Origin: Holothuria leucospilota
Lineage: Eukaryota
Reading direction: 5' to 3'
Assembly: GCA_029531755.1 (NCBI GenBank)
Contig: CM055969.1
Coordinates: 23,687,285-23,751,284 of the forward strand
Length of the DNA: 64,000 nt
Translations under genes and position numbers: made by a program
Notes under the pieces: model-generated
Seen by the model: only the letters and a program-made list of their open reading frames with translations
What the model was told of the DNA's origin: nothing
Databases searched by the model: none
In this document: positions 1 through 52,800 of the stretch, piece by piece
Position numbering within the stretch: position 1 is the first letter of the stretch
Layout of the letters: each line of letters opens with the position of its first letter

Positions 1-42
1 GGTTTCTGTCTCTGAACATAGGGAGTAAGATGACTGATTCTT

Positions 43-1545
43 TGCCAAAGGCAGGCAAGGAATCTGTGCTATGGTGATGTCGTGTATGTGTGTATGTGTA
101 TGTATGTGACCCCTAGCTTGTAAACACGATATCTCAAGATAGCACTGACCGACACATTTCAGATTTAGTGTATACATTCGTCATGTTGAGAGGAAGAAGC
201 CTATTGTTTTTGGTGGAGGTCAAAGGTCATTTGAAGTCACCAGAGGTCAAAAACCAAAAGCTTTGTAAACACGATATCTCAAGTAAGCAATGACCGACAC
301 TTTTCATATTTAAGTAAACAGATTTGTCATGTCAAGAGGAAGAACCCTGTAGTTTTTGGTAGAGGTCAAAGGTCATCTGAGGTCACCAGAGGTTAAACTG
401 CTAAAACTTCGTATTAAACGGCTTGTAAACACGATACCTCAAGGTAGCAATGACTGACACTTTTCATATTTGGTATATGGATTTGTCATGTTGTGAGGAA
501 GGATCCTATTGTTTTTGGTGAAGGTTAAAGGTCATTTGAGGTCACCGGAGGTAAAAGGCCAAAATGCTTGTAATCACGATATCTCAAGATAGGAATGACT
601 GACACTTTTCATATTTGGTATATAGATGTATCATGTTGAGAGGGAGAACCCTGGTGTTTTTGGTGGAGATCAAAGGTCATTTGAGGTCACCAGAGGTCAA
701 AGACCAAAAACCTTGACATCGTGGTATGTCAAGATAGGAATGGCCGATATAGATTTGTCATGTTGAGAGGAAGAATGCTGTTGTGTTTGGTAAAGGTCAA
801 AGGTCATGTGAGGTCACCAGTGGTTAAACTGCAAAAACCTTGTAAAATGGCTTGTAATCACTATATCTCAAGATAGCAATGACAGGCACTTTTCATATTT
901 GGTATATAGATTTGTCATGTTGAGAGAAAGAGCCCTATTGTTTTTGGTGAAAGTCAAAGGTCATTTGGGGACCCTGGAGCTAAAAAACTGAAAAGCTTGT
1001 AAACACAATATCTCAAGATAGGAATGAAGGACACTTTTTCGCATTTGGTATATAGATTTGTCATGTAAGGAAGAATCCTATTGTTTTTGGTGGAGGTCAA
1101 AGGTCATCTGTGGTTACCATAGGTCAAAAAGTGAAATTTCCCAAGAATTCCCAAGATTGCCATCTGGGGTAATCAAAGGTCAAAAAGCAAAGTTTTCCAA
1201 GAAGTCCCAAGATCATCATCTGAGGTCACCAAGGGTCAAAAAGCAAAATTTCCCAAGAATTCCCAAGATTGTCATCTGGGGTCACCAGAGGTCAAAAAGC
1301 AAAATTTCCCAAGAATTTTCAAGATCCAAGATCCATTGGAGTTGAATCCCTTTCGAGACACTTCCGTTTTTCCTTTTTGTTATATTTGGTGGGGTTCAGA
1401 GGTCATGTGAGGTCAGTAGAGATCAAATTGTTAAAACATCGTAAAATGATGTAGTCAAGAAAGATAAATTTGAGGGATAAACCTCAGTGCAACAAAGCAT
1501 CCCCATTCGGCAAGGAATCACTAAGCCTTTGGGCTTTCTAGTTTT
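43..1545 (+). mobile_element. Family A composite MITE-like element. Layout: hairpin-like 5' terminus (..ggcaggcaaggaatc), (TG)n at 86-108, about 7 satellite monomers of ~145-150 bp (114-1060), ~66-bp subrepeats (1130-1330), then the 3' terminus ..cattcggcaaggaatcactaagcctttgggctttct.
   Basis: The same ordered structure recurs in reverse orientation at 39459-40978 and as a satellite-free ~240-bp copy at 26653-26890. Both termini carry GGCAAGGAAT in inverted orientation. Confidence 0.75.
217..249 (+). promoter_or_regulatory. Example of the AGGTCA half-site cluster carried by every satellite monomer: AGGTCAaAGGTCAtttgAAGTCAccagAGGTCA (DR1 + DR4 + DR4 spacing)
   Basis: The motif is read directly. 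It is reiterated in each ~145-bp monomer of families A and B on both strands, e.g. 365-398, 513-546 and 8448-8470, and as tgacct..tgacc in minus-orientation copies. Confidence 0.4.
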
Positions 1546-2285
1546 AGAAAAGCAGAATACAACCAGGGAATGATAAAAATATTCTCTACAAGACAAAAAA
1601 AATCACCTTCCAAAAAAGTCTTCAAAATGTTTGGAAAATCAAAAGTTCCTCTTTAGTTTAATTTTCTAGTGCAAACACTGACTACGCCACATATTTACAA
1701 TAGAACTTATGCATACTACGTCACAGAACACCGGCAGAGGTAAGCGTGGATCATTACAACTTACACCAACACAAATGCAGACAGCTGATTTGTGTACTGG
1801 TCGGAATACGTGCGCGAGTCTACTACTGTATGTGCACACAGTGTGCTTCATTTTTTGCCCTCCAAAATGACCTCTGGGTGACGTCAAAACGTAAGGTCTG
1901 TTAGATGTTTCTGTAGCTATGCAAAGAAAGCTTACATGTTGAAAGATTCATTTGGTACAATTGTACATGTGTACACAACTGGCCAATCATAGGGAGGCAG
2001 GCAGTACATATAGAGGTGTTTCACCGATGTCACATGATGGTGCATCTCTTTGGTTGTTAGCATTTTGTGGGGCAAGCATCCATTGTGTCACAGTAGTGTC
2101 TATGGTTATTCTGTGTGTGTGTGCTGTAAATATGCTTACTGTTTGAGTGCTGTGCCCGATAATCCCAATCACGTGACATCAAATGAAATACCTGTATACA
2201 ACATATCTTGTATACACACTACTACACAAGCGTGTAGTAAAGTCATTGCATATAACTGCTCATCATGTTCTCTCCAATATCTTAG

Positions 2286-3266: not shown

Positions 3267-4506
3267 GTAAGTTTATGTTTAATTGCATGCTGCCTTCCTT
3301 TTTCTGCTAGTGTTAAAGTATTGGTTAATTTAATGTGTTTTTCTTTGTTACTGCTGATACACTGTCAGGGATGTGTCCACACCAGGTGGCACAAGGTCAG
3401 TCTTGGCACCCAGGACTTGTACATTTACCAAACACAGATTTAAAATTGGTCAGATTTAGCTGGGGTGTTTCTTTGGTATATGTTTAGCACAAAACTATCT
3501 GTCTACCATTTTGGGGACTGAGGAGTCACAATTTCCTGCCAGAACTCAATACTATTTGGGCACATTTCTGCACTGTGTTTGAATACTGTCATGAAATTTC
3601 TCATCACATCCAAAAATTCATGTTGTTGATGTATCGTCATTTAGAAAATACTTCATGTATCTGCAAAGATTTTGAGCTGATGTCATAGACATCTGTCCAT
3701 TAGGGTCCGGGATGACGGGCTATGGTTCGGGTTTGGGGTGAAATTTTTCATAATTAAGTGTCACTCTGTGAATGTAACTATAGATGTACCGCTCCCCATC
3801 TCCTTCCCTGTTTTATTTATTTTATTTTTATTTCAACCTTCAAGGGTAAAACTCATTTAGCAATTGATACAAAATGCTAATCTTACATGAGGCCCTCAAT
3901 GTAGTTCAAAATTTAAGAAGTATAAAAAGTGAAAACATGTATATATGTACAAATAAAGAACAAAAGGTAAATGAAAATAATACACAGAAGTGAACCTATA
4001 CAGTACTAGAAAGTTCAAAGTTCAGGCCCTTAAATTTTTTTTTTTTGCTCCATTTCTTTCTTTCTTTCTTTTTTCAATGCTTGTTCATAAGTTATGTACA
4101 TGTAATTTACATACAGGGGTAATACATTACATTGTAGTGTGCATCCTTTACTTTGGGCTAGACATATTGTACATGATCAAGGCTCGTGATAATATACCTG
4201 CCCATGTGGAATTAAAAGCACATGCATACATCTATGAACATTTCTTTTGAATGCAGGATAACACAAAACATTCCATATGTACAGTACAATGGTTTTATAA
4301 TATTATGATCTCTTTGTTTAGCAAAACTACTCAACAGTGGTGCAGAGCAATGGTTTTGAACCCTTCAAGTATCTAAAAGCTGGGAATACACTTTCATATG
4401 TCAGATTGGGACAATTATTGGGGATTCCACTAGTGGGACTGGGAGAAATTTTGAATATTTGTAGAAGGGATGCATGCAATCACAATGGCCTTTGTGTGTT
4501 TCTGAT

Positions 4507-5540
4507 GCAAAGCTTGTAAACACAATATCTCAAGATAGTCCTTAATGTGGTATATAGTCATTTTTAGAGCTCTATTGTTTCGGGTGGAGGTCAGAGGTCA
4601 TTTGAGGTCACAGAGGTAAAAGCTGCAAAGCTTTAAACGCAATATCTCAAGACAGGAATGTGGATATTTTAATACTTTTATATAGATTTGTCATATTGAG
4701 AGGAATAACCTATTTTTGGTAAAGGTCAAAGGTCATCTGAGGTTACCAGAGGTGAAACTACGAAAACCCAAGAAAACTGCTTGAAAGCACAATATTTCAA
4801 TATGCAAAACATTGAAGGGTCTCATGTCTAGCATGTGATTGCCCGTATTGAGGACAAGAATCATGTTGTGTTTGATATTGTTTTTGTGGAGGTGAAAGAT
4901 CATTTGAGGTTACCATATAAGTAAAATTTTGCAGAGCTCATTAACACAGAAGAAGGGTAAACCTTGATGGGTTTTATGCTTAGCTTTACATGCTCTACAT
5001 TTAATGCAAAACCTCTTTGCATTTTGATGGAGTTCAAAGGTCTTTTTAGGTTATCAAAAGTCAAAATGTACAAATGTGTTAAACATGATACCACAAGAAG
5101 TGTTACTTGAAGGATCTTTCACTTAGCATGGAGATGGTTGACAATAAATTCAACACCTCTGTTGTTCTGGTGGAGGTCAAAAGTCTTTTGAGGTCACCAG
5201 AGGTCTAACAGAAAACCTGGTAAACAAGATGTCTTAATAAGGATAATTTTGTAAGATGTAATAATTTGCACGTAGATGCTCCATAGCAACAGTTGATAAC
5301 TAAAAGAACCTTACAGTGTTTGGTGGAGATAAAAAGGCATTTGAACTCACAAATGTCAAACTAGGAAAACCTTGTTAACATCATATCCCAGGAAGGGAAG
5401 CTTTGGCGACTCTTGTACTTGACAGATAGGTGCCAAATCTTATATAAAGAATAGAAGAAACCTATTGATTCTATTGGAAGTCAAAGGTCATTTGGGCTCA
5501 TGAGAGGTCTAGCTGTGAAATTATGTAAGCCTAATATATC
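4507..5540 (+). repeat. Degenerate older array of the ~145-bp satellite (cttgtaaacacaatatctcaag...ggaggtcagaggtcatttgaggtcac...), without the terminal modules
   Basis: Diverged monomers are recognisable at about 4507, 4635, 4790, 5040, 5160, 5320 and 5465. Confidence 0.55.
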
Positions 5541-6169
5541 TCAAGAACTGAAATAGTACATGTCAAGATCTTTTGTTCTCCCACCACCGATCACTGCCCA
5601 GCGCTCCCCCTCACTACTTAAAATTACCCCGCACCAAGCAGAATGAAAGGATTTGACATGTAGACTGGGCGTATTTTCTTTGCAAGGAATCAGAGAACAG
5701 ACATTCTGGTTACTTGATGTGACCACTGCTTTGAACCTTATTGGCCAAAATATCACAATGCCTTTGTAACTTTTAAGATTAAACACTGCACCATACACAT
5801 TTACCGTAACTCCTCCTTAATAATATACTAAATTACACACACTCCTTTGTCCTCCCGGACACAAGTCCACAATAGCCATCCAGTGCAGTGAATGACTGAT
5901 GACAGTACTACATGACTTATGCACTGCCACATCGTTGGAGGCAGGGGACATACTCCCTTTTGGCTCTTCAGTGTTTGTTACCTTAGAATACAAAGGAATC
6001 AGTTTTGTTCAGAACAGAGTACTCACAGCTACCATAGCTATTCAGGTATTAGATACAACTCAGGCACACAACATACGTGTTTGCATAACAAAAAGAGAGG
6101 AACCCATTCCTGTGTCCACCAAATCCCTTGAGCTATCCCTGACTCTTTGTAAACTTTGTAAATTCCATG

Positions 6170-6660
6170 ACTTTTCCGTTTGGAAAATCAATACTTTTCC
6201 CTAAATTCCCTGCTTGCTAGTAACCTTATACAGTGTGCAGACTATAATCTCATAAGAAAACATTAAAAGTTAATTAACTTGAGAATAAAAAAAACAACCT
6301 TGAACCAACAGCTTATTGCTCTTGGATGAAAAATTAGTTAAACTTTGACCCAAAATGACATTTGACTTCCTAATTTTAGATTCTTAATGCTTCAAATGGA
6401 TGACTCCCTGACTTTTACCTGTTTGGAAAAATCAATACTTTTCCCTGAATTCCCTGCATGCTAGTAACCTTGTACATTGTGCAGACTATAGTCTCATAAG
6501 AAAACATTAAAAGTTAGTTAACTTGAGAATAAAAAAAACAACCTTGATCCAACAGCTTATTGCTCTTGGATGAAAAATCAGTTAAACTTTGACCCAAAAT
6601 GACATTTGACTTCCTAATTTTAGAGCCTTGATGCTTCAAATGGATGTCCCTTAGCTCTTA
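6170..6660. repeat. Tandem duplication of two ~243-bp units, immediately 3' of the NAT stop codon
   Basis: Near-identical copies: ttggaaaatcaatacttttccct(a/g)aattccctgc...ctaattttaga... repeated at about 6177 and about 6420. Confidence 0.8.
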
Positions 6661-6705
6661 CACTCTTCTGTACAGTAACATCAGATTGTATTACATGCAT
6701 ACACA

Positions 6706-7605
6706 TTATATCAGTTTGCTAAATTTGAAGACTTTTTCAAGCTTCTTGACTGAATATTGAGGATAATGTTCCAGAAAAAAGTCCATCAGTTCTGTCTTTT
6801 TCATGGTAACCCTTTCTGTGGTGTCATCCTTCAGGTTGTAAAATGTTGCATGGGTCTGACCATCTAAACACACAATGTTTACATGTAATTGCTCAGTTAA
6901 GAATGTAGAGAAGAGTAAACTGTCAAATGGCTTACTGAAGATACTGCCACGTTTGACATACTCTTGCCACTTTCCAATGAATGTGGACCATGCGACTTGT
7001 TTACTGAGCCTGTACTCTAACATTAGTTGCCAACGTTCCCCATTTGAGTCGCATATGACTGGTGTGTCAGGATCAGGGGCTAAAGGAATGCAAAGCAGCA
7101 AAATGTCATTCTTTGTCTTGAAAAATTTGATCTTAAATTTATGAAATGTGTATACAGGGGACTCCCTCTCAAAATCAAGGGGAACAGCTGTATAGAGGGG
7201 GTATCTCATGCCAGGGTCCACCAGATGGCGACTTCCAGGGTAAGAAATATCACAGACGATGGTGCTGATATGGGTGTCTTTGTCAATAGGCCTATCTATT
7301 ATTGGATGGTTCATACCAGGTATGTGGTAGGTGATATGTCCAAGTTGCTCTAGTATGACCTTGGTGAAAGGATTTATCCAGATACAGGTCCCCCCTTGGC
7401 CTGACAGAATGTGGTATTTGAAATCTTCAGGCGTCAAGTCTGGGAACTTTCCTGCCAAAAGGTTTATGTTCGTGAAAGGTAGACTTTTCTTTATCCCTTT
7501 GATCACATCATTCAGGAAGTCCAATGATTTTCCTCCAGCATGCACTTGTGAACGGCATATCCCTAAACTGTTGTCTAGGAAAGTGAATGCTTCCTCCTTT
7601 GTCAA
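6706..7605 (-). CDS. NAT: Arylamine N-acetyltransferase (NAT), complete intronless 299-aa CDS
   Basis: An uninterrupted 900-nt ORF. The N-terminus MTKEEAFTFLDN resembles human NAT1 MDIEAYLERIGY. SLPFTNINLL aligns with VPFENLNIH. GQGGTCIWIN aligns with RGGWCLQVN and places a Cys at the catalytic Cys68 position. THISTIVCD aligns with MIHLLLQVTID and places a His at the His107 position. HLVDPGM aligns with YIVDAGFG and places an Asp at the Asp122 position. Length is 299 aa, typical for NAT. Confidence 0.85.
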   Translation of the reverse strand: MTKEEAFTFLDNSLGICRSQVHAGGKSLDFLNDVIKGIKKSLPFTNINLLAGKFPDLTPEDFKYHILSGQGGTCIWINPFTKVILEQLGHITYHIPGMNHPIIDRPIDKDTHISTIVCDISYPGSRHLVDPGMRYPLYTAVPLDFERESPVYTFHKFKIKFFKTKNDILLLCIPLAPDPDTPVICDSNGERWQLMLEYRLSKQVAWSTFIGKWQEYVKRGSIFSKPFDSLLFSTFLTEQLHVNIVCLDGQTHATFYNLKDDTTERVTMKKTELMDFFLEHYPQYSVKKLEKVFKFSKLI

Positions 7606-7676
7606 CAGGTACGGTACTTCTTTGCCTTGTGTTGTCTAAATGGTAGAAAGATAATTAAAAGAATGTTACCATTTCT

Positions 7677-8718
7677 GGTTTCGATGATAAGAGAAACCTA
7701 TGCATTCATGATGGCATATGTGTGTATGTATGTGTGTATGTGCATGCACTCACCCACGTGGCCTTAGCGGGTGTGAGAGCTCTGCTCTCGCAGCGTCTCT
7801 CCTAGCTCACACGCGGATAGAAACCGGCGTAGCTGCCTGAAAATTCGGCAACTGCGAAGAGAAGTGGCTGCACATGTCTGCCTTGGAGCGCAGCTTGCCC
7901 TCAAGCACGTACATCCACTCGACTCGTTTGTGGGCAGCTCCGCTGCTGGGAATTTCTCTTGGATTCCCTACCCTACCGGGTCCTTGCCTGGTAGCCCGTA
8001 AGGCATGGAGTGTGCGTACTGTATGTGTGTGTGTATGTGTGTTTGTGACACTTTGCTCGTTAACATGATATCTCAAGAAGGGAAACTCTGACAGTTCTCA
8101 AACTTGGTACATAGATGCCCCATATTGAGAGGAAGAACCCTATTGTTTTTGGTAGAGTTCAAAGGTCATCTAGGGTCACCGGGGGTCAAACACTGAAAAC
8201 CTTATTAACATAATATCTCAAAGGAGGAAGCTTGGATAGATTTTATACGTAGTATGTGGATGCATTGTGGTGAAAAGATGAACCCTATCATTTTTGGTGG
8301 AGGTCATCTGGGGTCAATGGGGGTCAAACACTGAAAACCTTGTTAAAATGTATTTCCAGGTAGGAAGCTTGAATAGATTTCATACTTAGTGTGTGGATGT
8401 GTTATGGTGAAAAGATGGACCCTATTGTTTTTGGTGGAAGTCAAAGGTCATCTTGGGTCACGAGAGGTAAAAAAGCAAAATTTCCCTAGAATTCCCAATA
8501 GTTTGATGTGGGTTCACCAGAGGTCAAAGAGCAAAATTTCCCAAGAATTCCCAAGATCGTCATCTGGGGTCACCAGAGGTCAAAATGCAAATTTCCCAAG
8601 AATTAAATGGGAACACAAAACAGTATTTTTCCAACATGTTAAGATAGCATTTGACCATTGACTGAAAGATATGGGACATCATGGATTTATCTGGAATAGA
8701 ACATATATCATCGAAACC
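7677..8718 (+). mobile_element. Family B composite MITE-like element, copy 1. Layout: 13-bp TIR GGTTTCGATGATA inside a hairpin, (TG)n, about 3 satellite monomers (8050-8460), ~66-bp subrepeats (8470-8620), then the inverted TIR at 8706-8718.
   Basis: The 5' end ggtttcgatgataagagaaacc is itself a hairpin. Its 3' end is the reverse complement of the 3' end of the copy at 52801-56077. The element lies 72 bp upstream of the NAT start codon. Confidence 0.75.
7741..8020. mobile_element. GC-rich ~280-bp insertion that splits the (TG)n microsatellite of family B copy 1; candidate SINE-like insertion
   Basis: Absent from the otherwise collinear copy at 55935-56040, where the (CA)n tract is uninterrupted. 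Local GC is far above the flanks. TG-repeat sequence resumes on both sides. Confidence 0.5.
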
Positions 8719-9112
8719 TCAATGCATTTTTGCATTCTGGTTCTTAAAATAGTGCAGACAAGCTGCTAACAACAATGTTGATAATAAACACACTCAACAT
8801 TCTTCAATGATAAATCTCCATACCTCTTTCAGTATTGGCCTCAGAAATTAAGCTGGGGTCTGGTTTAATGCTGATGCAATGCCGCTTGTTAATCGTAATC
8901 AGATGTCCCTAAGATCCCGTACAAACTACAGATTTGTTTCTCCAATCATCATAAGTGTCTCATAATCTCTCTCACATATGCAAAAATTATAGGCTTACAC
9001 AAACTGACAGGGTTATGCTTAGGTCTATTGCATTGTAATTCATATGGATATGAAGTTACTAGAGAAGATTGTTCTCTTCGGCAACTGCTTGAGACGGGAT
9101 ACCCACTAGCCA

Positions 9113-10540
9113 GAAGGTTCACTAGATAAAAAATGTACTTAACCTAAAATCTACTTTAGATTAAAGGTGGCATTAGGATTCATGTCAGTTGCAGAATAAG
9201 GTTGAGGATTCCAGGATAGCCTTGTGTAGGATTAGGGTTTGGGCTCGGTTTATGGTTAGGATTAAGTTTTGTGTCAGGATGTTTGGTATAATGAACCTTC
9301 GATTAAGGAAACCTTGGGGTAGTGAACCCTGCCTTTGAAGAACACTCTTTTGTTTAAGCAAGCCTTGTCTCAGTTTCAAGTAAGGAGGGGGGGAGGGGGT
9401 TGCTGGCACTTCTGAGTGAGGGATATTCCCATGACAACAACATGAGCAGCATATATCGTTATGATATTTTTGTGTACAGTTGTTGATTCTCAAGGCTGTT
9501 TTGATTTTATTTTGTGAAGTTTTGCTTTTAAAGTAGTGATTTTGGCCTAAAACTCAGAAAATGATGGGGATGCAAGATAGTTCAATCAAATTGTAAATTG
9601 TCATTTAGCTGCAACTTTGTGCATGTCTCTTAGTACTTACTTTTCTCACTACTTTATTTTGTAGCTGAACTACATATTACAACTAGTTTAGTGTTAGGCT
9701 TATGTGGCTAACACCAGTGTCATACAAGGGTGCATGAATGAAAGTCCATTAAAAAGTGCCTTTCAGTTCTTAGCATATAAGAAAATAGTACTTACCATAT
9801 TTGAAGAGAAAACTCTTTCACTTCCAAATAGCTCTTTCTTCTTAAAATCAGAAAGCAGTGGGTGCTTATGTTTGAATTTCCACACTAACCATAGAGTTGC
9901 AGCTCTTGCAGTGTGACACAAGTGTTTATAGACTTCCATACTGTGTCATTTGAAAGATGCTTGTAGCTAGTATAGCAATCCTAAATTCTGTATGAACTAA
10001 GAGAACAAGTAAATGACCATAGTATTCAAATCGGATATGTTGTCCCATTTTACATTGTATCCTGTTTTATTACAGGAAAGGCAAAGATACATCATTCCTG
10101 TATTCAAGTCCACATTTTCAGTATCCCCTGAAATGTGTGGGAATAGCTGTATCTACTCTATAGCTATTTAGAGCAGTGTTCACTAGATGGCATGATGCTA
10201 GAATTCAATAGGAGGATTTAGCCATCAGGCGGCTATGTATTTCACCCGAGAAAATGGCCTTTTCCTGGGAAACTTTGGCTAAACGAGCCTATTGAATTCT
10301 AGCGACATGGAAGGTTCACTAGACTGAAGATCCTGACTCCATATTTAATCTTAACCCTAACTGTAATCCTCAACCAAGCGCTAATCCTGCCTGAGGATAA
10401 TCCTTAGCCTAATCCTAAACGTTATTATGCATGCCCAAATCCTATCCCTAAATTTAGCCCAAAGTAAACTTTTGGTCAAGCAGATCTTCAGTCTAGATCG
10501 CGAAAATTTGTTCTAGTGAACCTTCGGCTTTGTGGATATC
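9113..10540. mobile_element. Foldback-like element with ~230-bp inverted arms (9113-9340 and 10290-10540). The arms begin gaaggttcactaga and are rich in AGGATT / TAATCCT subrepeats.
   Basis: The reverse complement of the right arm aligns to the left arm: gaaggttcactaga..ggttgaggatt..gtcaggat..gtgaaccttc. Confidence 0.55.
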
Positions 10541-11657
10541 CTGTTGTTTATATGCCCTACTGTACCTTTTATAAATAACAAGAGCTGCTGAACAACTAGT
10601 ATGTCTACATGCTACTGTTACTCTTTAGGTAAAGAACAGAAAAGGTTATGCCTGATAAATGTTTTGGCCACACACAATGTTGTTTAAAGTGTGTATACCT
10701 TCAATTTTTATCACAGGGATCAATTAAAATGTTATTTCTGTCTTTACTTGTTTGGGAAAAGAAATGTATGTTTACTTTCCATCTGACACATCATGAACGC
10801 CAAGAGCATTGTCAAAGTTGGTGTTTGGGTTTAGATAACCCAAACCCTATGTTCTGACATCTCTATGTTCCGACACTATAACCCTAATAATTTCACCCTA
10901 ACCTAACCCATACCTTAACACTGACGTTTGTGTGTACTTGTCAAAATATACAGATGTTGGAACAAAAAGACGTCAGAAAAGAGAGCAGTCCCTAGGCTAA
11001 GGAAGAAACCTTATAGCTATGTTGGACTATATGACTACATGACCATTCTGAAACAGAAAGTTGTAACACACTACTCAAACTTTAGATGAAGAAATAAGTA
11101 AGAATATATACTTACATATTTGTTTGCTTCCTGGTAACATCAAATTTTGCAACAGTTGTGGCATGCTTTATCAATGTGACCAAGATTGGTATCTCTCTGA
11201 TCAAATTTAATCTTTGTCGTGTCTAAGAAAAATCCAGGTGCCTACTTTATGGTGAACTAAATGCCACCAGAGCTGTAGCTTGGTACTCTGTGCAATCTCT
11301 AAATTACCCCTGGGTCAACTCATCATTGCTTATTACAGTAGTCTTCTGTCCATATCATTTAAACAAATACTTTGAATAGCTGCAGAAAAGGCCTATTGGT
11401 GCAAAAGTCAGAGTATTTCAGTTTTTTCTACTGTCATTTGATGTTTAGCGACAAGTTGTTAAATTTTAGAGTTGTTTGTGCAAGTAGTATTCTTTTCATT
11501 CGCAATGTTTGTCTTGTTTAAATTCTGGACTTCGTTCTCTGTAAGAGATATACTGTTGCTCAAGTATGTTGTTTATCAAATTGAAGGTTAGACAGACTTT
11601 AAGTGTATTTTAAACTAGTTCATGAGCAGGTTAAGCTTTGCAAGGATTGAATATTAT

Positions 11658-11822
11658 ACAAATAATGAATGTTTATGAGTGCGATAGTATGAACAATTTC
11701 ATGAGTTGAAAGATTAAACGTTCTATTCAACGAGGCGAAGCCGAGTTGAATAGAACGTTAAAGCTTTCAACGAATGAAATTATTCATACTATCGCACGAA
11801 TGAAAAACATTCATTATTTGTT
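11658..11822. repeat. Long imperfect palindrome (~75-bp arms, ~14-bp loop), followed by a 21-bp tandem duplication at 11900-11941
   Basis: Left arm: acaaataatgaatgttt..gcgatagtatgaacaatttcat..gttgaaag..aacgttctattcaac. The right arm is its reverse complement with a few mismatches. Confidence 0.75.
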
Positions 11823-11984
11823 TTATATAACACCTTATAATTTTGCTAGTAGTTGGTTAAGTTTGTGTTTTGGCGGTCACTATGGATTCATGTTTGTCCT
11901 TGTAGTAGCTCCATGGTTTGTCGTTTTCTCTCCATGGTTTGTCGTTTTCTAACTACGCGTTTATGTAGGCCTGCCTGATATAGA

Positions 11985-12180
11985 GGGATTCTTTGTGACG
12001 TCAAGCGCGTTGGATTCTCAGGCACTGAAGGGCAAAACACACATACGCAGTAAGCGTATTTACAGCACACGCGCATGGCATTACCATAGATACTTCTGTG
12101 ACACAATGGACGCTTGTCCTTCAAAACCAAAGAGACGCGCGATCACTTGACGTCGGTGAAACAATGTACGATCCCCAGTG
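11985..12180 (+). repeat. Dispersed repeat family C. Other copies: 15440-15610 (+) and about 1950-2180 (-).
   Basis: Shared segments: agtatttacag(c/t)acac..catg.c.t...tgtgacacaat..a.gcttg..aaagagacg.gcga.c..tgac. The CCKYAYC peptides in the artefact ORFs at 2050 (+) and 11888 (-) reflect the same repeat. Confidence 0.55.
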
Positions 12181-15199: not shown

Positions 15200-17399
15200 G
15201 TAAGGAAAAGCAAGTAGCGGGTTTTAGCCAGACAGTTTAAATTGGGCATTGCACCAGGTTTGGATTTTACACTTTCACTCTGCTGGTTTGACAATTTAGC
15301 ACCCAGTTTGAATTTTATCCCACATGGATTAAGGACCATTTTAACCAAAACCATCTACTCTCTGTGGTAGTTCCTTATGGTGACTTGATTGATGCTACAG
15401 AGGTGTTTCATGTGATGTCTTATTTTTGGAATAATTGTCTTTCCTGCCGGTCACAGCACATGCACAGTAATAGTATTTACAGTACACACCCAAGGCATGA
15501 CCTTGAATACAATTGTGACACAATAAATGCTTGACAGGCAAAGAGTCCTGCAGCCAAAGAGACGTGCGACCATGTGACTTTAGTGAAACACCTCTGTTGG
15601 CATTTTAACCTGTAAATTGACAGGTGAGAATATATTCCCAGTAAGAACCATGAAAGTGTCATTAATGTCAGTGCTATATTGTCCTTTGTTTCCTGGTGTC
15701 TGCATTTTTTAAATTGTCTGTTGGTTTGTTTTTAACATATATACCTTTTCATCTCAGAGTACTGTTTATTAACAATGTATGAGACATAAGTGACTAAATG
15801 TAATGCACAAATGCATGAGGGCAGATTGTTTAATAGTTTGTCAGCCTATGTGCAACTGAGTTACATCTCAGTTTAAGGTTTTTTGCAACATAAATCCATT
15901 CAAATGGGACAATTTGAATCCAACCCTCTGAAATACCTCAGTCATGTTCCCATGATTTTGTTCTCAAAAGGAAGTTGAATGTACTTTCTTGAACAGTACT
16001 ACAACCTCAATATAGGCTTTAGCCTACATAATACCTGATTTGTTATTGGTGCCTCAAAAGTTTGCACAGTTTTGGAAGTACAGAATTTTACAGCTGAACA
16101 AGATATGTGTTTCTTTTGAACTTTAAAAAGGAGCTGAATCTTAACAGAAGTGTTAGAGAACATGGAGGGGTGTTGTAACTTCAATTAGGTGGATGGAAAC
16201 CAGTCTCCTGAAAAAAGTGGAACATTATCTCTAGATATTTATACAAGCTACTTATTTAAAAGTGCTGAATTCTTGACTGTATACAGGTATTCAGTTCCCC
16301 CTTTTACCAGTCCCGTTGGTCTACAGTATGATTTCAGAGAAGTGTCAAAGAAGTGTCAAATTCAAGGGCCAATTTGCTCATCCCAAATGTTTCAAATTCT
16401 CCCCACAAAGGTTTATCTTATCTCTCTTCCATTTTCAAGGGCTGACTGAGTACCTCCCACAAAGTAGCTGCATTACCCATGGGGAATACTCATTGAGCTG
16501 AAGTATTAACCTATCAGGCCATTTTCCGAACAGTTTATCATCATGTATTGCGAAGAAACTGAATTTATTGCCCTTCTGTCCTGCCTTTGTGCTGTGTAAT
16601 AGTCATCTAAATCTCACTGATCGGTACATGTCATTTCCCAATCAGTGGCTTTGAATTTTTGTAGGCACAGTTTGAATTTGCCCTCATTTTATGTATCAGT
16701 TCTGCATAGCACAGTGATAAATCATAAAATTAAGGGACTTTTGCTAAACATGTGTTTTGCAATGATGAGAATGTTCCTTTAAAAGACTTGTCATTTAGTT
16801 TTTTGTCATTTGCTGGCAGTCTGCCAGCATTCCATGAGGACAATTTTAATTTCAGATGTATGAACTTATTTCAATAGGTGGACCCTTTTCAAAATAGCAG
16901 TTACAAAGGATTATGAAACAGAGTTTTGGTATGTGTCATTACTCGTCAATGAAATTTTACTGTGGTCAAAAACAGACACGCACCAAAACTCTATTCCATA
17001 ACACTTTGTAATTACTATTTGGAAAAGGGTTTATTGGCATTCCATCAATTTAGTGTGAAATGAGTGAATGCAAAGAATAAACGTGTAATGTTTACAATAC
17101 TGCCTGAAAAACTAAATTTTATTATAAAAGATAACTCTTGGACTGGTCTTATACAAAATGGCTTTAGCATGCAGTGGGAGTTTTGATTGTCTTAGAAGTT
17201 AGAAAATTAAACACTTAAAACAAAGGACTCTGCTGTGCATAAGGACCATATGGGGTGCACTGCATTAAAAGAGGGGATAGTTCAAACATGGACCCATTAA
17301 GAATTAATGCACCTGTACAAATCAAGTGATATCAAGAGATCTAACTGATATAACAGAACCTACAAGACTGTTTTCATTTAATACTGTACATCATTCCAG

Positions 17400-18576: not shown

Positions 18577-21500
18577 TCTGGGTCACCCTGATGGTTTATG
18601 CAAATTGTGCTCTTGTTTGTTATGATTCATTGCAACTGGTTTAACATCATGTTTTGACAATGTCTTGGAAAGCAATATACGTGCCAGTAACAGGTATGAG
18701 GTATGGAAACATTTAACTTTTTAGTACCGGTACTTTGTTTTTCTTTTCTTTTACTTGAAACCTTTTCCTCCCAGTATTGTTCTAGTAATGTATTTACATA
18801 CATTTATCACATTTTATTTAGTATGTTATCAGTTTTGAAGAGAACTCTCTTTAATACAACTACAATTAGGTTCTGTTACTTTTGAGCTGTTAAGCAGCTA
18901 TTAAAATTCTGGAGTTGCTGAAAGTAGGTGACAGTCATGTAAAAGTATTTCTGAGGCTTGAACCACAGTAAAGTGTGTGGTTGATCATGAAGTAGAAAAC
19001 GATTTATTAAATGTAAAGTGAGTTTCTGATGCACAATGAGGAAATTTCATGAGCTTAACTCATGAGATTAACATCTGAGGAATATAATGAGAAGTGCCCT
19101 GACAGTTTCATTTTGTAATTGTGCGATTAAGATTTCTCTCGATATGTATTTTTTTCGGTATACATTGCTTTGCATGGCTTGTGTCTGCATATAAACCAAT
19201 ATATCAACCAATTTTTTACTTGATTAGCCATTTTACAGTCAGTTTTAAAAACTGTCAAAATTAAATGAAGTACATTTTGCATGATACAGTTATACTCCTA
19301 ATAAATTAAATCTTCCTTTTATGACCTTTGACCTTTGTTGAAAACTATTTTTTCCTGTAATGATATGCTAATCTCTGGCAATCTTTGTTTTCTCTCACCT
19401 GTACATGTCACATTATCTGGCACTGAATTATACTAAGTGCCGTAAGGTAGCACAACAGGTCTCAAGTTTCTTTAAGTGCCAAGTTACAACTGTGACTTAT
19501 AACTTATAACTATGTATCAACAGTGTAGGGGTAGTGAGGAGGGGTAAGTCACCCCCTCTCCCAACCCCACCTCACTGCCATGTCTTAACTTTGGTGCAGT
19601 GTGCTTGCAATCAGGAACCAGGTGTAAAAGAATTTTGCAAGATTCCAGTAGATTCTCCTTTGCTTATAATATAATTGCAGCCAAGGGCGTAGATTTCTTT
19701 TCAACTTTTGGGGGGATGGGGTAAACTTTGCAAATGTGGAACGCGTGCACAGAGAGCGCGAAGCACGAGCCCATGACAGGTGGGGTCCAGGGGCCCGCCT
19801 TAGGGCCCCTGGTGGGGTCCATGGGGCAAAGCCCCGGTGGGGGTGCAGGGGGCAAAGCCCCCGGAAGCTCCTGGGTTTTAATGTCTCAGAAGTGCCAGGA
19901 AGACTGTTTTAAGGGGTTATTTTCAGTGGTAATGTTCTTTGGTAGGCAATTGGTATATTCATGCATTTAGGAAATAGCCTACTATTTTGAGCACATACTG
20001 TAACTCGTTGATAAGCTTCACTGGATTGAAATTGTACAAGAGCAACAATGTCCTGTTAAGCTTAAAAGGCAGGGATCAACATATAGGGTCATACCAGTAC
20101 CAGACAACTGGATTTTGAATTCGGAGATCATTGCAAATCCTGCAAGTTGGCTTGAGATCAGTGGCATCGCCAGATTTTTTGTGATTGGGGGTCCATAGAT
20201 GATGTCGTAATAATACTTCAGTTCCCCAAGTCTGCTTAAATTACGCCTTTATTTTTCATGCGTTCCTGCATTTGCATGCAGCAGTTTTGATCTTTCATTT
20301 GTCACTACATAAAGGTGTCGTCCTAGGGAAGGGGTTCCCCTCCCCTTTAAGAATTTTTTTATTACTTTAAGGTAGTTTAGATGCAAAATGGTGCTATCTT
20401 TGTGATGTTTTTTGGAACTGATCATATATGGCTGGAAAATGTCCATAATTTAGTGAATGTTAATTTTTGGTAAGGTAAAAGAAGAGAATATGTTGTCTAT
20501 TAAGAGACAGATACGTTGTCAACAAATCTCCTGAAGCCCCCTCCCTTCTGTCTATTTTACTGCCTTCTGGGAAAGTTTTTACACAAAAATATGTGCATGG
20601 AGTCCACAGAAACATTCTTGAGTTATTACGAAATATGTCCTTTCCTTCATTGTGCATTGTGAAAGGGCATCTAAGGCTAGCAGATACCTGAATAGGACCT
20701 CCTGAAAGCTCTGCATTAAATCATATTAATTTTTTGGGGCGGGGAGGCAATTAAATAATGCGTATACTACCTAACATCCAAATGATAATATAGAGTACGA
20801 CGCTGAACACTTCACAACTATCGTATTTTTACTACTTTTGAACTAAAATCCGGACGAACAGCTGCCAGCAATGAAAAATGAGAGGGAGGGAGAGTATAGG
20901 TGCAGGGAGGTGACATTAGAAATCCCTGACAGGTGTAGTAAAAGGGGTGAAGGACTAATAAGAGCATTACAGAGTGTTGTTTTCGTCATAAGTGTATTAA
21001 CAATCACCATCTATTCCGATAATTGCTCAGCGCAAACCGGCGAAGCTCTGGTAAAATTTTTTGAAACATGTTTAACGGCAGATACGTACTTCCAACCTTC
21101 TACATCATGCTATATATTAGATTGAAAGATCCCATATTGGTGCGAGGTCCCCCACAGATGTTTGGAGATGTATATCTGTTCTTCGGAAAGTGTCGTGATC
21201 AGAACAGTTTCGTGTATTATTATCTTAATAATGGTCATGACATGGAGTGTAAACAGTGACGAATAATATTTCCATTACAAAACCTGCATTTAGACTCTAC
21301 ATCGAGACACTTTCAATTGCCCAACAAACCTACATGCACTGCCATAAGCCAGTCTTTTACCTATTAATTTGTAAACTTTCAACATTTTGCTGCTGTGCTT
21401 CTCTGAAAGTTGCTATTGGAAGATATTGATAAGATGAGTGACAGTGACGTAACGTTGGAAGCGCGCGGAGCGCGCGAAAATTTTGATAGATTGCCAACAA

Positions 21501-24500: not shown

Positions 24501-24774
24501 TTAAAGAAATCACTTTTAATCCTCCCCAGACTCTAAAAAAGGTTTATAGTGAATCAGATGCCATACATTAGCACAAAGGTTACTTATGATGTGATACTCT
24601 AATAAAAACATGCATGTGATAAACAACTTAGTTACTATGGTGTTACTATCACCTTTGCTTAAAGGGCACACAAAGTTTGCAGGGTCATACCTCCATATAT
24701 TCACATAGCGATGAACGAGAAAATGCCACTTATTGAACCATATGCACAAGTGATATACAATTTTACCATCTCCT

Positions 24775-25620
24775 TTGACAAATCACAACGATTTTACTAC
24801 GTCAAATCTTCCATTTTCTTTGGCCATGCTGCTTCCATTTCATCTGCATACGTATGAATGGATCTTAAAAACATTTCTTACGAGTAAATTCAATCCATGT
24901 TACAGCTTTAAGCTTAATTTTTTTTTTTGGGCAGTGATTATTACATAATTTTATACGTATCTTCCACACATGATTATTTCCCACCAATTCTATTGGTCAG
25001 GAAAAATGCAAGCATTGCTTAAGCCTTACATAGCTTTGTGAAAACTAGCAAAAAAAGATTTCTCCTAATGAAGCCTTTTCACTAAAAAAAAAAAAACAAA
25101 AAAATGAGAAAACAGGACAAACATAGAACACTTCACAACCACACACATTTCTACTCCAAATAAACACTCTGCCCCTCACCCCTTTGACAAATCACAAAGA
25201 TTTTAAGTCAAATCTTCCATTTTCTTTGGCCATGCTGCTTCCATTTCATCTGCATACGTATGAATGGATCTTAAAAACCTTTGTTGCGAGTAAATTCACT
25301 CCATGTTACAGCTTATTACAGATTATTACATAATTTTATACATATCTTCATAATCTTCCACACATGATTATTCCCATCAATTCTATTGGTCAGGAAAAAT
25401 GCAAGCACTGTTTAAGCCTTATACAGCTTTGAGAAAACTAGCAAAAGAAGATTTCTCCTAATGAAGCCTTTTCACTAAAAAAAAAGAAAAAAAAAAGTGA
25501 GAAAACACAACAAACATAGAACACTTCACAATCACACACATTTCTACTCCAAACAAATACTCTGCCCCTCACCCCCACCCTCACCCCACCCCCGACAAAA
25601 GACATTAAAAACATTTGATA
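24775..25620. repeat. Tandem duplication of two ~425-bp units in intergenic DNA
   Basis: gacaaatcaca(a/c)gattttac..tcttccattttctttggccatgctgcttccatttcatctgcatacgtatgaatggatcttaaaaac.. is repeated at about 24777 and about 25195, including the poly-A segment and the acacttcaca(a/t)ccacacacatttctactccaaa(t/c)aaa(c/t)actctgcccctcaccc tail. Confidence 0.8.
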
Positions 25621-26652: not shown

Positions 26653-26890
26653 CCAGAAAGCCAAAAGGCTTAGTGATTCCTTGCCAATGAAACTTAAAAA
26701 GCAATCTTCGAAGCACCAATCATGTTTGCTAATGACGTTCTCTCCCTAAACTCATGTTTTGAGGTTACCCTTCTTGAGATAGTGTTTACAAGCTAAGTGT
26801 CACATACACACACATACATACAGCAGACACACACATACATACGGCTAACATGGCATCACCGTTGCATAGATTCCTCTATGTCAGGGAATC
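26653..26890 (-). mobile_element. Family A element in minimal (MITE) form: both termini and the (AC)n tract, no satellite array
   Basis: Runs accagaaagccaaaaggcttagtgattccttgcc..cttcttgagatagtgtttacaagc..gtcacatacacacac..catcaccgttgcatagattcct. About 240 bp. Confidence 0.7.
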
Positions 26891-27584
26891 AAAAGCTTTG
26901 TCTGGTCTCAACCTTTCTCAAATTCACATAGTAGGCCTAGGCCTATACATACTGAAAAGTTTGTATGATGTACGCCACAGAATTACGCCAAATTATGTCA
27001 TGCAATGGGACTAATATTTCACGGTATACCGGTATTTTTGTAAGTACAAGTATATACCGGTACCCATATGTTACCACCCATCATAAGATACCAAAGTATC
27101 GATGAGAACCGTACCCGATGGTACTGCGAAAATATTTTTTGAAAATACAATTGAATGGAATATTACTGAATTATAAACACCACATCCATTGGATAACTGC
27201 CTTGCATTTTTTATATTAAATTATAAACCTGAAACGTGCATTTGATAATTATTTTTCACCATTCCAATAACAAATTTCACCTCGGAAATGTTAATTTTAA
27301 TGTTATCCTATGTTGCTAATGAGTACCCTTGTGACGTTTGTTTTAACTTGGAGAATAAAAGTTTGCAAAAACAGCTTTGCGTTGTATTTGTAACTCATCT
27401 AAGCTTTAAACTATTATAGAAAATATTATTAACCAATGGAGGAGTACAACAGTATTTATGAAAAACTATACATGAAAACATACAGCTTCCTCAAAATGTG
27501 CTTGCAGCATAATGGTTCCGTAAGTATAGGCCTACACATTACTATGCATAGTATACAGTGTGCAGATATTTACTAACATACTGG

Positions 27585-28612
27585 AAGCCCAGCACCAAGC
27601 GGTCCTACTAATTAGAGCCCGGCTGTCCATGTACGTACAAATCAACCGCCGTAAAGAAGTTCAATTGTTTAGCAAACGTATTAACAGCAAATTGGTACGT
27701 AAATCACACGTATAGTAATATTAAACAAGTTTGTCCCCCCCCCCCCCAAAAAAAAAAAGCCAATTACTGTATGTGTTAAGTTAGGCTATGTTGTCACATC
27801 ATGGGGGAAAAACTTTAATTGATCAGATTAGCAGGCCCGTAGCTGGGGGGAAACCACTTTGAGGGGTCACATCAAAGTAGGATTGTCGCTGGCCTGGGGG
27901 AGGGGGCGTCCCTCCCCTTTGAAAAGTTTTTGTCTTTTTCAAGGAGCCTAGATGCAAAATGGTGTGAGATCATTTCAAAATTTGACAGAAGTAGTCTTGA
28001 AGGTTTAGTTATTTTTTCTTCGTTTTTGATTTTCCAGGGGGGCAAGTGTCCCCCCTTGCCTCAACCTTGGACGCCCATGTTGTCAGAGCTAATGAAATTA
28101 CGGTATGATCACGAATGTACCTCTAGTTATTTTCACATACAGGATTCCGTCTGCCGGGAAAGAAAAGTGGCCGAGTGGGCGGAGAATAATCCCCTACACT
28201 TTTTAAAGTAACATGCCCGTCACTCAACTGTTGATGCCCATTCAAGCTGAGGCACTCCAGGCAGGCCTATGGACCCGGCAAACTTTGCAGTAACTTTGCC
28301 AAAACACTGAACATGATCTTTGAAATTTATGATTGATAAAAATTAATATTGTCAATGCAGACTCATTGACTCATTCTGTAATTACTTTTGTTAAAAAAAT
28401 ATAAATAAAATCATACTTTTGCCTTCAAAATACAACATTGAAAAGGTATTTTTCGGCCACCAAGTTCTTTAGGCAGTCAACTTTATTGTACCTCATTACG
28501 TACATTTACGATGCTTCTATAATGTACACTCATGTATAGCCAGGCTAAGTTTAGGTAGCACAGGGCGAGCCGGGCTAAAATTAGTAGGACCCCACCAAGT
28601 GACTGCTATCCG
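27585..28612. mobile_element. About 1-kb segment bounded by ~25-bp inverted repeats (..ggtcctactaatt.agagcccgg.. versus ..ccgggctaaaattagtaggacc..). It contains a family D motif.
   Basis: Inverted match between 27597-27625 and 28570-28600. The interior carries gggggagggggcgtccctcccctttgaaaag...agatgcaaaatggtg at 27890-27965. Confidence 0.45.
27890..27965. repeat. Family D dispersed motif (G-run..TCCCCTCCCCTTT..AGATGCAAAATGGTG). Other copies about 20325-20400, 34625-34700, 51015-51075, and a partial copy at 39235-39365.
   Basis: Shared strings ccctcccctttgaaaag / ccctcccctttaagaa / ccctcccctttggaaa, followed by agatgcaaaatggtg / cgcaaaatggtgctatc / caaaatggtggcat. Confidence 0.5.
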
Positions 28613-30789
28613 GAATTGCGACTGAACGAAACATAAACTGGGGAGTACTGTACAATTGCCACAAACCCCATTAGCAATATCATGGCACCCTTAAGGGAAG
28701 AGTTGGCGCTCTATTCCCTTCTACCATAGCACCACAGTGGACACAGGTTGGGCCAAGTCCAGGGTAACATATGGCGGAGCCACTCCATGAATGTTGCGAA
28801 TAAGGGTCCAAGGAACCATTAACTGACATCCATGTACCAATATTCCATTTTCAATAGTACATAGTCGGGCCGAAGCCACAGTCGGGAGAATGGCAGTGAC
28901 AAATAATGCTATCTATGCTCAAATCTTTTTGTTCTTATTGTGAGTCAAGTATTCACTTCTCTTAAATAAGAAGAGTATAAATATTGCTGCCACATCCCTA
29001 GCCACATCCCGGCCATAATCTTAACCAAAGTCTCTCACAGAACAAACTATAAATGGAACTTCGAAGCCCACAGTACTGCCATGCAACTAGGCCAACTTGG
29101 CTATTTCACACCATCTTACCGTGTAATGCATATACACAAACACAGGGTGTAGGCCCACATGTGCTTGTTTTTAGGTGTTTTAGTATCATAAAGAGGGGTA
29201 GGTACTGCATGCACGCACTGTATATTACTAGTTTACTACATAAGTATCCGTTCGATACTGTCCACAAATCGATGGACTGTACTCGACTACGTACGCATTA
29301 TGTAGGCCTATGAGTTGATAGATCGAATGTGGCCTACTGTCTTTGTGATTTGCTACAAAGCATGAAAAATTTGCTGCATGAAATGTGAACTAGGGTTGTA
29401 GCCTACCCACAAATATTAGCAGAAAATTTTGTTGTGGTTCACTGACCTGGCGCGGACCAGAGTAGCTACAACCCTGACTCTCTATCACTTAATAAGCTTA
29501 GTTTTGAGCTGATGAATCTAAACATTTTTGCAGGTATTTTGTGTTAAAAACTGGACTATTTTCTCTAATGGAACCAGTATTGCGGTATTACCGGTACCAT
29601 TTGTGGCAGTACCAAATTTCAGCGGTACCGTGAAACCTTACAGGGGACTAGGCCTATGCCACGCCAACTTATTGTTAACACCCCAGTCTCAGAAAGCATA
29701 ATCCTGCAGCCTGACACTACAATACATTACTGTTGGTTACTGCAGACATAGGCCTACTGTGTATTTGGCTTAAGGTGTAGGCTAGGCTAACATTAGTGTT
29801 TGTTATAGTACCGACATTCACTTTAGTATGCCCCCCCCCCCCCCCCCAATGACGTCGGCATCGTGCACCAAAGCGGGCAAAGCCAGTACGGCATACAATT
29901 TCATTTGCCACAGATCTGCATGAAAACTCTTGAACTTTCCTGTATGGGCCTAGGCTATACTCGTAGGTAGGTCTTGGCCTAACTGATTTCTACAAATCAT
30001 TAGCCAGCTGCCTACATGTAACTTTGTAAGACCCTTCATTCTAACGATACTTGCACTTAGTAACACTAACAGTTAGTCACAGGCTGTCCTAGCGTTATAC
30101 AGTAAACGAGTAAGTTAATACCTTAGGCTATATACAGTACATATAATAGTGGAAAGGTAGCGCACTTCACAGCCTTTCGCCTTTCGGTACCAACTTCGCC
30201 TGCCTGAATCACGCTGTTCATGCCTTATTCTCCGTTATCAATTCACAACAATCTTCCAATCGTGCCCGTACAGCACTTCTGTGGTATGACGACTCATTTG
30301 GACCGATAAATGTGTTTAAAAAAAGGAATATTTTTCTGCGAAAATTTCGTTTGCACATGATCACGTTTAGTCGTCGCGATGGTGACGTCACTTGTATAAA
30401 GGGATTTCCCCCATCTTCGAAATCCGGTCCTCCCACTGGATAGTTCGGCCTATCGTCATGAGAGACTCACTACGTCAGGACAACTATCCAATGGGAGAGC
30501 TGAATACCATCAGCTAACAGCTATCATGATCTTCTGGATACGGATGCCCTTGGGGTATGGTTAAGTTTTACAGACCGTGTAGTAAATATACGTAGACCGT
30601 TATCACATTATTGATATGAATGGTTCATCACAGCTACCGTAGAATGCAGACCTTTAAAGAAAATGCCAATTTTGACCTCAAATGACTTCTAATCTTCATG
30701 AAATTTTAGGACAAATATGTACTACATAAAAGCCAGCTACACAGCAAGTTTCAAGTTAAACCAAGTTCTACATTCAAAGATATTGTGCT

Positions 30790-52246: not shown

Positions 52247-52800
52247 CTAGGAGGAGAAGGAAAAATACAAGAAATAACAGATGCAAGTCCAAACAGTTGT
52301 GGAAAGAACTTAAATCGCATGACAAAATTGCAAGTACCATGGATCAGACTTGTAGTGAGTATATACTTGTACTCACAGTTCTGCACAATTGTCTGTACTC
52401 ATACTTATGAGAATGAATTTATACTCATACTCATACTAACAACCAAAGATACTCTGCTTGTACTCATACTCATGACAATGTACTCACAGTACAAGTCTGC
52501 TATGGATGCCCCATAGTACCGCCAACACAACTGCCACTGTTGCCACTTTTTTGTCCAAAGCTGTACCAATATATATTGAGTCTGAACTTAATCTCATCAC
52601 AAGGAGTATCTTAAACTTTTCCATACAAACATTTAGATTTTATACCACAAAGGACAGACTTCTCTTTGATTATACATGAAAAAAGCAGTAAAATTAGTTA
52701 TCAGCAGTTCACACAAGTGGTTAGGGAAACATAAATATTACAGACAATGTTTCCACACTTCTAAGATTTATTCTAAAACCAGAATGCAAAAATGCATTGA

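Follow-up and report, generated by a model that had tools for sequence, protein, structure and literature searches.

A modular element with internal satellite arrays, probably a non-autonomous Helentron, in a 64-kb stretch of the sea cucumber Holothuria leucospilota

Results

Seven copies of one modular element in the window

The stretch of DNA analysed here, referred to as the window, consists of 64 kb from the sea cucumber Holothuria leucospilota (GenBank assembly GCA_029531755.1, contig CM055969.1, positions 23,687,285 to 23,751,284) and is AT-rich eukaryotic DNA with a GC fraction of about 0.38. It contains seven copies of one modular repeat element, which together take up about 9.5 kb or 15% of its length. 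The copies were established by BLAST of the separate modules against the window, by Tandem Repeats Finder (TRF) and by direct reading of the sequence. The E-values of the module searches ranged from 1e-11 to 1e-73, so that the likeness of the modules between copies is far above chance. Six copies, assigned to two families (A and B), had been listed in an earlier sequence-only reading of the same DNA and all six exist. The seventh (C, about 4423 to 5709, plus strand; its 5' limit is tentative) was absent from that reading. It is an old, degenerate A-like copy with about seven eroded monomers, the 3' end of which is still recognisable as ..GCAAGGAATC..ATTCTGG followed by TT.

In family A, the copy A1 (36 to 1541, plus strand, 1506 bp) is complete and is flanked by gatgacT on its left and by TTtt on its right. 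Its 5' terminus folds as a hairpin at 36-64, made of a subterminal inverted repeat (subTIR; GATTCTTTGCC, 36-46, with one mismatch to the family-A form GATTCCTTGCC), a 7-nt loop and the complementary inverted repeat (IR) GGCAAGGAATC at 54-64. It is followed by a (TG)n / TGTATG microsatellite at 81-108, an array of seven 145-bp monomers at 118-1136 (segmented with nhmmer and TRF) and four 56-bp subrepeats at 1103-1325 (TRF and BLAST). The 3' terminus at 1509-1541 is composed of the subTIR GGCAAGGAATC (1509-1519), the hairpin AAGCC-tttg-GGCTT (1523-1536) and a terminal TCTAG (1537-1541). A4 (39460 to 40978, minus strand, 1519 bp) is also complete, with six monomers and about seven 56-bp subrepeats; its 5'-terminal G is absent. 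A2 (26653 to 26890, minus strand), which represents a separate subfamily, had been described as a copy of about 240 bp without satellite. It is indeed a near-empty copy of 238 bp, but about 30 nt of the first monomer remain between an eroded 5' hairpin with (TG)n and a unique part that ends in an intact 3' subTIR, the hairpin and CTGG. Of the copy A3, which had been placed at 30790-31206, only the 5' half is present (about 30660 to 31206, minus strand, left limit approximate). A perfect 5' hairpin and a 58-nt (TG)n tract are followed by two monomers of a diverged variant, with an array period of about 156 bp, and a third eroded monomer; the 56-bp block and the 3' terminus are missing. The 5' end of A3 (31206) and the 3' end of A2 (26653) have the same orientation and bound a segment of 4.55 kb (26653-31206, minus strand). 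Reading this segment as a single composite element was rejected as the primary interpretation, because A2 owns a 5' end. It is possible that the pair could in principle serve as a read-through unit whose mobilisation would take host DNA along.

In family B, the complete copy B1 (7677 to 8740, plus strand, 1064 bp) begins with the subTIR GGTTTCGATGAT (7677-7688) and the IR GAAACC (7693-7698). Its (TG)n tract is split in two parts (7709-7744 and 8019-8047) by an insert of 274 bp (7745-8018). Three monomers at 8059-8480 and 56-bp subrepeats at 8447-8604 precede the 3' subTIR ATCATCGAAACC (8707-8718), the hairpin AATGCA-tttt-TGCATT (8721-8736) and the terminal CTGG (8737-8740). The second member, B2 (52779 to 56077, minus strand, 3299 bp), is complete as well and contains a 62-nt (TG)n tract, 20 monomers and about three 56-bp subrepeats. 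A 3.3-kb array had been reported at 52801-56077. The array does have 20 monomers, but 3.3 kb is the length of the element, the array itself measuring 2.9 kb. In the same way the copies that had been delimited as A1, B1, A4 and B2 are real, whereas their ends needed correction to the coordinates given above; the elements run 22 nt past the 3' repeat that had been regarded as a terminal inverted repeat (TIR).

Module order and coding capacity

The modules had an identical order and orientation in all copies. From 5' to 3' these are the terminal repeat with its hairpin, a conserved stretch running from CTATGC to TGATGGCG, (TG)n, the monomers, the 56-bp subrepeats, a unique part, the inverted repeat and 22 further nucleotides. 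The (TG)n tract is impure and varies from 25 to 62 nt, the monomers number from 0 to 20 per copy, and the copy numbers of the internal arrays differ from locus to locus. A monomer profile counted seven monomers in A1, six in A4, three in B1, 20 in B2, two in A3 and about seven in C, all on the element's own strand. Together with BLAST of the modules this confirmed the earlier proposal that A and B share one ordered architecture with none to about 20 monomers. That short satellite arrays are spread by a single element family had also been recognised correctly.

The only long open reading frame (ORF) within a copy, at 39583-40197 in A4, is a read-through of the repeats, and no ORF of at least 110 amino acids was present in any other copy in the window. 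The elements are without coding capacity.

Structure of the termini and their flanks

The 5' end of family A consists of GATTCCTTGCC, 7 nt and the complement GGCAAGGAATC, and the latter recurs 22 nt before the 3' end, where it is followed by the hairpin described for A1 and by TCTGG (TCTAG in A1). In family B GGTTTCGATGAT, 4 nt and GAAACC form the 5' end, and the complement ATCATCGAAACC stands 22 nt before the 3' end, followed by the hairpin described for B1 and CTGG. The subTIRs are 11 bp long in A and 12 bp in B, and they are perfect in A3, A4, B1 and B2. The 5' hairpins fold as the sequence-only reading had claimed, with -11.7 kcal/mol (z = -5.1) in family A and -3.9 kcal/mol (z = -2.9) in family B. 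The 3' hairpins fold as well. The two ends are asymmetric: on the 5' side the inverted repeat stands at the very end, on the 3' side it is subterminal, and the 22 bases past the 3' subTIR are conserved among the copies of a family and close with CTGG or CTAG (CTRG). Between the 3' hairpin and the end lie 5 nt in A and 4 nt in B. The 3' stem of family A is intact in A1 and A4 and eroded to a varying degree in A2 and in three copies from outside the window (L005, L008 and L009, see below).

When the termini were aligned with 30 nt of flank, the likeness between the copies was found to begin directly after a T, at GATTCCTTGCC in A and at GGTTTCGATGAT in B. It stopped at ..TTCTGG followed by TT in A, in B and even in the degenerate copy C (TCTAG followed by TT in A1), and the flanks beyond were unrelated. 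With the external copies counted, the 5' flank is T at eight of eight ends and the 3' flank is TT at nine of nine ends, often inside T-runs. A target-site duplication (TSD) of any length was found neither at the five complete copies in the window nor at L005. A search with joined flanks revealed no paralogous empty site in the window. A structural scan for CTRGTT with an inverted 11-mer upstream picked up A4, B1 and B2, whereas A1 escaped it owing to the single mismatch in its 5' subTIR; the few other matches are consistent with chance or with unrelated elements.

The sequence-only reading had regarded the elements as MITE-like (MITE standing for miniature inverted-repeat transposable element). 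True MITEs arise by deletion from a cut-and-paste DDE transposon and have TIRs and TSDs. That the elements are short and non-coding, with an inverted 11-12-bp repeat close to either end, would agree with this. However, the 3' repeat is not terminal, since 22 conserved bases lie beyond it, the ends are asymmetric, and the TSD is missing at each of the complete copies inspected. This makes an origin as MITEs very unlikely, and the idea can be considered as largely refuted already.

The form of the 3' end raises another possibility, namely that the elements are non-autonomous canonical Helitrons of the Helitron1 type, which have a CTRR end and a 3' hairpin and insert between A and T. The 3' CTGG or CTAG fits CTRR, a hairpin is found 4-5 nt upstream of it, and the absence of a TSD is in line with such an origin. 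The 5' ends, however, read GATTCC or GGTTTC and not TC, and the 5' flanking base is invariably T and not A. Moreover, inverted repeats of 11-12 bp, a 5' IR and a microsatellite are diagnostic of Helentron or DINE-1-like elements (PMC4067079). Of the canonical Helitron hallmarks (5' TC, 3' CTRR, insertion between A and T, lack of terminal inverted repeats) the 3' CTRG alone fits, so that membership of this group is improbable.

Copies outside the window

The translation of the accidental ORF in A4 was used to search a protein collection. Among the matches were 15 H. leucospilota proteins annotated as 'hypothetical', which lie on at least 11 contigs and are probably annotation artefacts; the repeat-derived proteins include HOLleu_07304, HOLleu_07151, HOLleu_28923, HOLleu_19653 and HOLleu_20668. 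The database matches of the ORF contained no Pfam domain with the exception of one marginal COMMD3. The model of COMM domain-containing protein 3 weakly matches the repeat (E = 9e-4), which may reflect element sequence within a gene model.

The same search matched about 20 short contigs from metagenome assemblies in the European Nucleotide Archive (ENA) and two Logan contigs. Six external contigs (L005 to L010) were examined, five of them from ENA metagenomes (L005-L007, L009 and L010, four of these from Tara Oceans or Tara Pacific) and one from Logan (L008, SRR27871390). L005 contains a complete family-A element at 1416-2673 with five monomers and four subrepeats. Its ends are GATTCCTTGTCGAAGGCAGGCAAGGAATC, preceded by ttttt, and GGCAAGGAATCACTGAACCGTTTGGCTTTCTGG, followed by TT, and its flanks are unrelated and without duplication. 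In L007 the 5' end is preceded by a T-run, and in L008 and L009 the 3' ends are followed by TT. Hence the same ends occur in different flanks in L005, L007, L008 and L009. The external copies, found in assemblies of open-ocean or reef metagenomes, are 75-98% identical to the modules of the window; their source is presumably Holothuria species, in the form of larvae, gametes or environmental DNA. An exact-pattern scan of metagenome contigs gave no match to the family-A 3' end. Three matches to the 56-bp core in that scan were rejected after BLAST had identified them as chance matches of 21-24 nt, and the 56-bp subrepeat core was not found in an exact-pattern scan of viral contigs.

These copies bear on the question whether the arrays are mobile at all. 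They could be plain satellites that lie beside (TG)n by chance, or segmental duplications of one locus. The variable array length and the local evolution of the arrays would suit this, and mobility is itself a deduction. Yet at each locus the arrays are enclosed, in one orientation, by the same non-repetitive modules on their 5' and 3' sides, A2 has the ends with almost no satellite between them, and the flanks are unrelated directly outside the ends. In addition, the same ends are present in unrelated contigs, and repeat-derived proteins are spread over at least 11 contigs of H. leucospilota. The conserved ends with unrelated flanks already refute this explanation, for which there is next to no likelihood left. 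The sequence-only reading had made mobility depend on conserved ends and TSD-like flanks in further genomic instances. Conserved ends are indeed present in L005 and in L007 to L009, but TSD-like flanks are absent. A TSD is the wrong criterion for the Helentron class, and it is to this class, as HINEs, that the features fit and not to cut-and-paste MITEs.

Satellite array, subrepeats and microsatellite

TRF reported tandem periods of 145 and 56 bp, and BLAST agreed with the shorter one, which had previously been estimated at about 66 bp. The 56-bp unit is composed of the last 35 nt or so of the monomer and TTTCCCAAGAATTCCCAAGAT. This indicates that the second array grew from the junction at the end of the first array. 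In every copy the unit is 85-93% identical to that of A1. A comparison of corresponding monomers in B1 and B2 showed 94% identity for the first and 81% for the last monomers. The interior of the B2 array is a higher-order repeat of 290 bp, that is two monomers, with an identity of 91% at lag 2 versus 75% at lag 1 and with some pairs being 100% identical. This implies that the long array grew via amplification of an internal dimer.

The 274-bp insert in the microsatellite of B1 is GC-rich (about 58%), single-copy in the window and missing from B2. It matched no tRNA and lacked clear terminal repeats; with permissive settings Rfam returned only a sub-threshold match, located in the (TG)n tract. 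L007 (about 360 bp), L006 and L010 likewise have unrelated extra DNA within or beside their microsatellite. The tract therefore seems to be a hot spot where sequence is acquired, which has also been reported for HINEs of the oyster. Scanning the entire window with Rfam and for tRNAs yielded nothing and thus gave no support for an origin of the elements or the insert from a short interspersed element (SINE) or an RNA gene.

Families A and B have coordinated differences at their ends

The stretch after the 5' hairpin, the microsatellite, the monomer and the 56-bp unit are shared by both families. Mean monomer identity is 65-72% between A and B arrays, compared with 87% within A4 and 81% within B2. 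Over the last 60 bp A1 and A4 are 57-58% identical to the B copies, 98% identical to each other, and B1 and B2 are 90% identical; A2 has 75-77% identity in this part, which places it in a separate subfamily. The terminal hexamers differ at two positions (GATTCC in A, GGTTTC in B). Both changes are compensated in the 5' IR (GGAATC versus GAAACC) and are repeated in the 3' subTIR. It follows that the changes at the 5' repeat, at its partner in the hairpin and at the 3' repeat took place in concert. Such a coordinated change at three terminal sites is indirect evidence that these sites are read jointly during transposition.

A conserved block in the monomer

Of all parts of the 145-bp monomer the block CCTATTGTTTTTGGTGGAGGTCAAAGGTCATCTGRGGTCACC, at about positions 83-124, is the most conserved. 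It is kept in A, in B, in the A3 variant and in the old copy C (examples are at 200-245, at 40590-40640 on the minus strand and at 53043-55940 on the minus strand). Within it are three to four RGGTCA half-sites as direct repeats, among them the canonical DR1 AGGTCAAAGGTCA, of which 13 exact occurrences were counted in the window against 0 expected. In this it is similar to a nuclear-receptor response element. A lone exact AGGTCAAAGGTCA at 19322-19334 (minus strand), within about 30 nt that resemble the monomer block (tagttttcaacaaaggtcaaaggtcat), is either a solo monomer fragment or a chance match. Judged from these half-sites, the block might conceivably be kept through protein binding, for instance by a nuclear receptor of the HNF4/RXR type, although we consider this doubtful. 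The block may equally well be a sequence needed for homogenisation of the array, or just an internal short repeat.

The elements resemble non-autonomous Helentrons

Elements of the DINE-1/HINE kind were described (Thomas et al. 2014, PMC4067079) as having subTIRs between 12 and 15 bp in length, either a 5' IR or a subTIR that is palindromic, a short 3' stem-loop, an internal microsatellite, optional central repeats, and flanks of TT or T-runs with the target site left unmodified. Pearl, DTC84 and the sea-urchin Tsp are listed as members in that study, which also records Helentron proteins in sea urchins and a sea star. Eleven elements of this kind, Cg_HINE, are known from the oyster Crassostrea gigas (Vojvoda Zeljko et al. 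2020, PMC7492417). The anatomy of the H. leucospilota elements agrees point by point with both definitions. The subTIRs, the 5' IR, the 3' stem-loop, the lack of coding capacity, and the microsatellite and central repeats in fixed orientation were all found. The flanks of T and TT and the lack of a TSD fit as well. This strongly suggests that the elements are non-autonomous Helentrons of the HINE or DINE-1-like kind, which carry an internal 145-bp satellite.

Several observations weigh against this assignment. An autonomous Helentron that encodes Rep, helicase or endonuclease was not found in the window, and when the ten longest of the remaining ORFs in the window were scanned against Pfam, no Rep, helicase, endonuclease or transposase was detected. 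The microsatellite is of the dinucleotide type (TG)n, while in most HINEs of the oyster the motif has 4 nt, for example GTCY. Judged by its energy alone, the family-A 3' hairpin is weak (z = -1.1). Mobility is inferred from dispersed copies with unrelated flanks, and the flanking T's may belong to the target or to the element.

Host gene and other features of the window

On the minus strand, the ORF at 6706-7605 represents the last exon of an arylamine N-acetyltransferase and agrees with HOLleu_19901 of H. leucospilota in 298 of 299 residues, the sole difference being an artificial TTG start. This match marks the host as a sea cucumber. According to a transcript contig the gene extends over 6077-11227 on the minus strand, with exons at 11116-11227, 9796-9987 and 6077-7636. 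B1 is located antisense within the last intron of this gene, at a distance of 40 nt from the acceptor. The 3' untranslated region of the gene contains a tandem repeat of two 244-bp units (6164-6646).

Three further repeats were observed. At 11651-11828 a foldback of 178 bp with two arms of about 85 bp, which is 83% self-complementary and has AT-rich flanks, looks like a palindromic MITE unrelated to the elements. Another dispersed repeat of about 145 bp is present in three copies (2012-2158, minus strand; 12030-12163 and 15448-15595, plus strand), which are 70-76% identical and unrelated to the HINE monomer. Finally, a 393-bp unit occurs twice in tandem at 24772-25575 with 86-88% identity and is likewise unrelated to the elements.

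Discussion

The sequence-only reading had linked the elements to pearl, MgE and DTC84 of bivalves. The likeness in architecture is real, but these elements are now classed as HINEs and no longer as MITEs (PMC7492417, PMC4067079), and the host here is a holothurian and not a bivalve. Short satellite-like arrays with repeats of about 160 bp, enclosed by flanking modules, are found in pearl (Crassostrea virginica, Anadara), MgE (Mytilus) and DTC84 (Donax), which could be compared by architecture only. They differ from the present elements in being of bivalve origin and in having carried a MITE-like label that is superseded.

The closest agreement is with Cg_HINE. The order of the parts is the same, a 5' subTIR of 11-12 bp being followed by an IR at a distance of 1-12 bp, a microsatellite, central repeats, a 3' subTIR and a palindrome. 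The central repeats in the oyster are 140-180 bp long and mostly number up to 5 monomers, with 29 as the longest array (PMC7492417). Some oyster elements have two consecutive arrays, as found here. Both groups have a variable segment between the microsatellite and the first repeat, are flanked by TT or T-rich sequence without a TSD, and maintain a fixed orientation of the repeats relative to the flanks. In both, related elements differ by diagnostic changes in the subTIR, the IR and the stem-loop. Apart from the microsatellite motif, the differences are that the host belongs to the Echinodermata and not to the Mollusca, and that the origin of the second array (56 bp) in the tail of the 145-bp monomer is still visible. 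GATTCCTT, GGTTTCGA and the reverse complement of GGTTTCGA were absent from the C. gigas HINE supplementary text, one file of which was covered in part, and a single match to AAGGAATC in that text falls inside a monomer sequence. An identical subTIR of at least 11 bp (Thomas et al. 2014), by which sequence-level membership of Cg_HINE is recognised, was not found. The absence of the subTIR strings from the oyster files indicates that these are different families of the same kind.

With the DINE-1/HINE group as defined in PMC4067079 the elements have in common the subTIRs (12-15 bp there), a 5' IR partner nested in the 5' subTIR (the DINE-1 form), the microsatellite, optional central repeats, the 3' stem-loop, the flanks of TT or T-runs and the non-coding nature. 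They have no sequence relation to the DINE-1 core. In addition, the 5' subTIR follows the flanking T directly, whereas it lies 2-4 nt inward in that group, and the 3' subTIR is 22 nt from the end as compared with 38-60 nt in mite families. Tsp of Strongylocentrotus purpuratus (Cohen et al. 1985) comes from the same phylum, although from a different echinoderm class. It has tandem repeats and is listed as DINE-1-like (PMC4067079), and was likened by its description only.

Going by Helitron and Helentron biology, the elements would be mobilised in trans by a Helentron Rep-helicase, possibly with an endonuclease. A nick at the 5' end of the element would be followed by unwinding of a single strand, which would end at the 3' subTIR and the hairpin as a terminator and would release the strand. 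The released strand would then insert into T-rich DNA without duplication. The internal arrays would hitch-hike, and unequal exchange or slippage could make them locally longer or shorter, as may have been the case for the array of 20 monomers in B2.

Satellite-carrying HINEs are well described in oysters, Drosophila and sea urchins, and the novelty is the host; in the literature searched no description of elements of this kind from a sea cucumber or any other holothurian was found. The current understanding of Helentrons and of the origin of satellite DNA is unchanged. As the repeat lies in introns and in at least 15 annotated 'hypothetical proteins', a proper repeat library would clean the annotation of H. 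leucospilota. Should the conserved block of the monomer be a receptor-binding site, Helentron derivatives would scatter arrays resembling hormone-response elements in introns and in the surroundings of genes, such as the intron of the xenobiotic-metabolising N-acetyltransferase. The elements described here extend satellite-carrying Helentron derivatives, known from insects, mites, bivalves and sea urchins, to the sea cucumbers.

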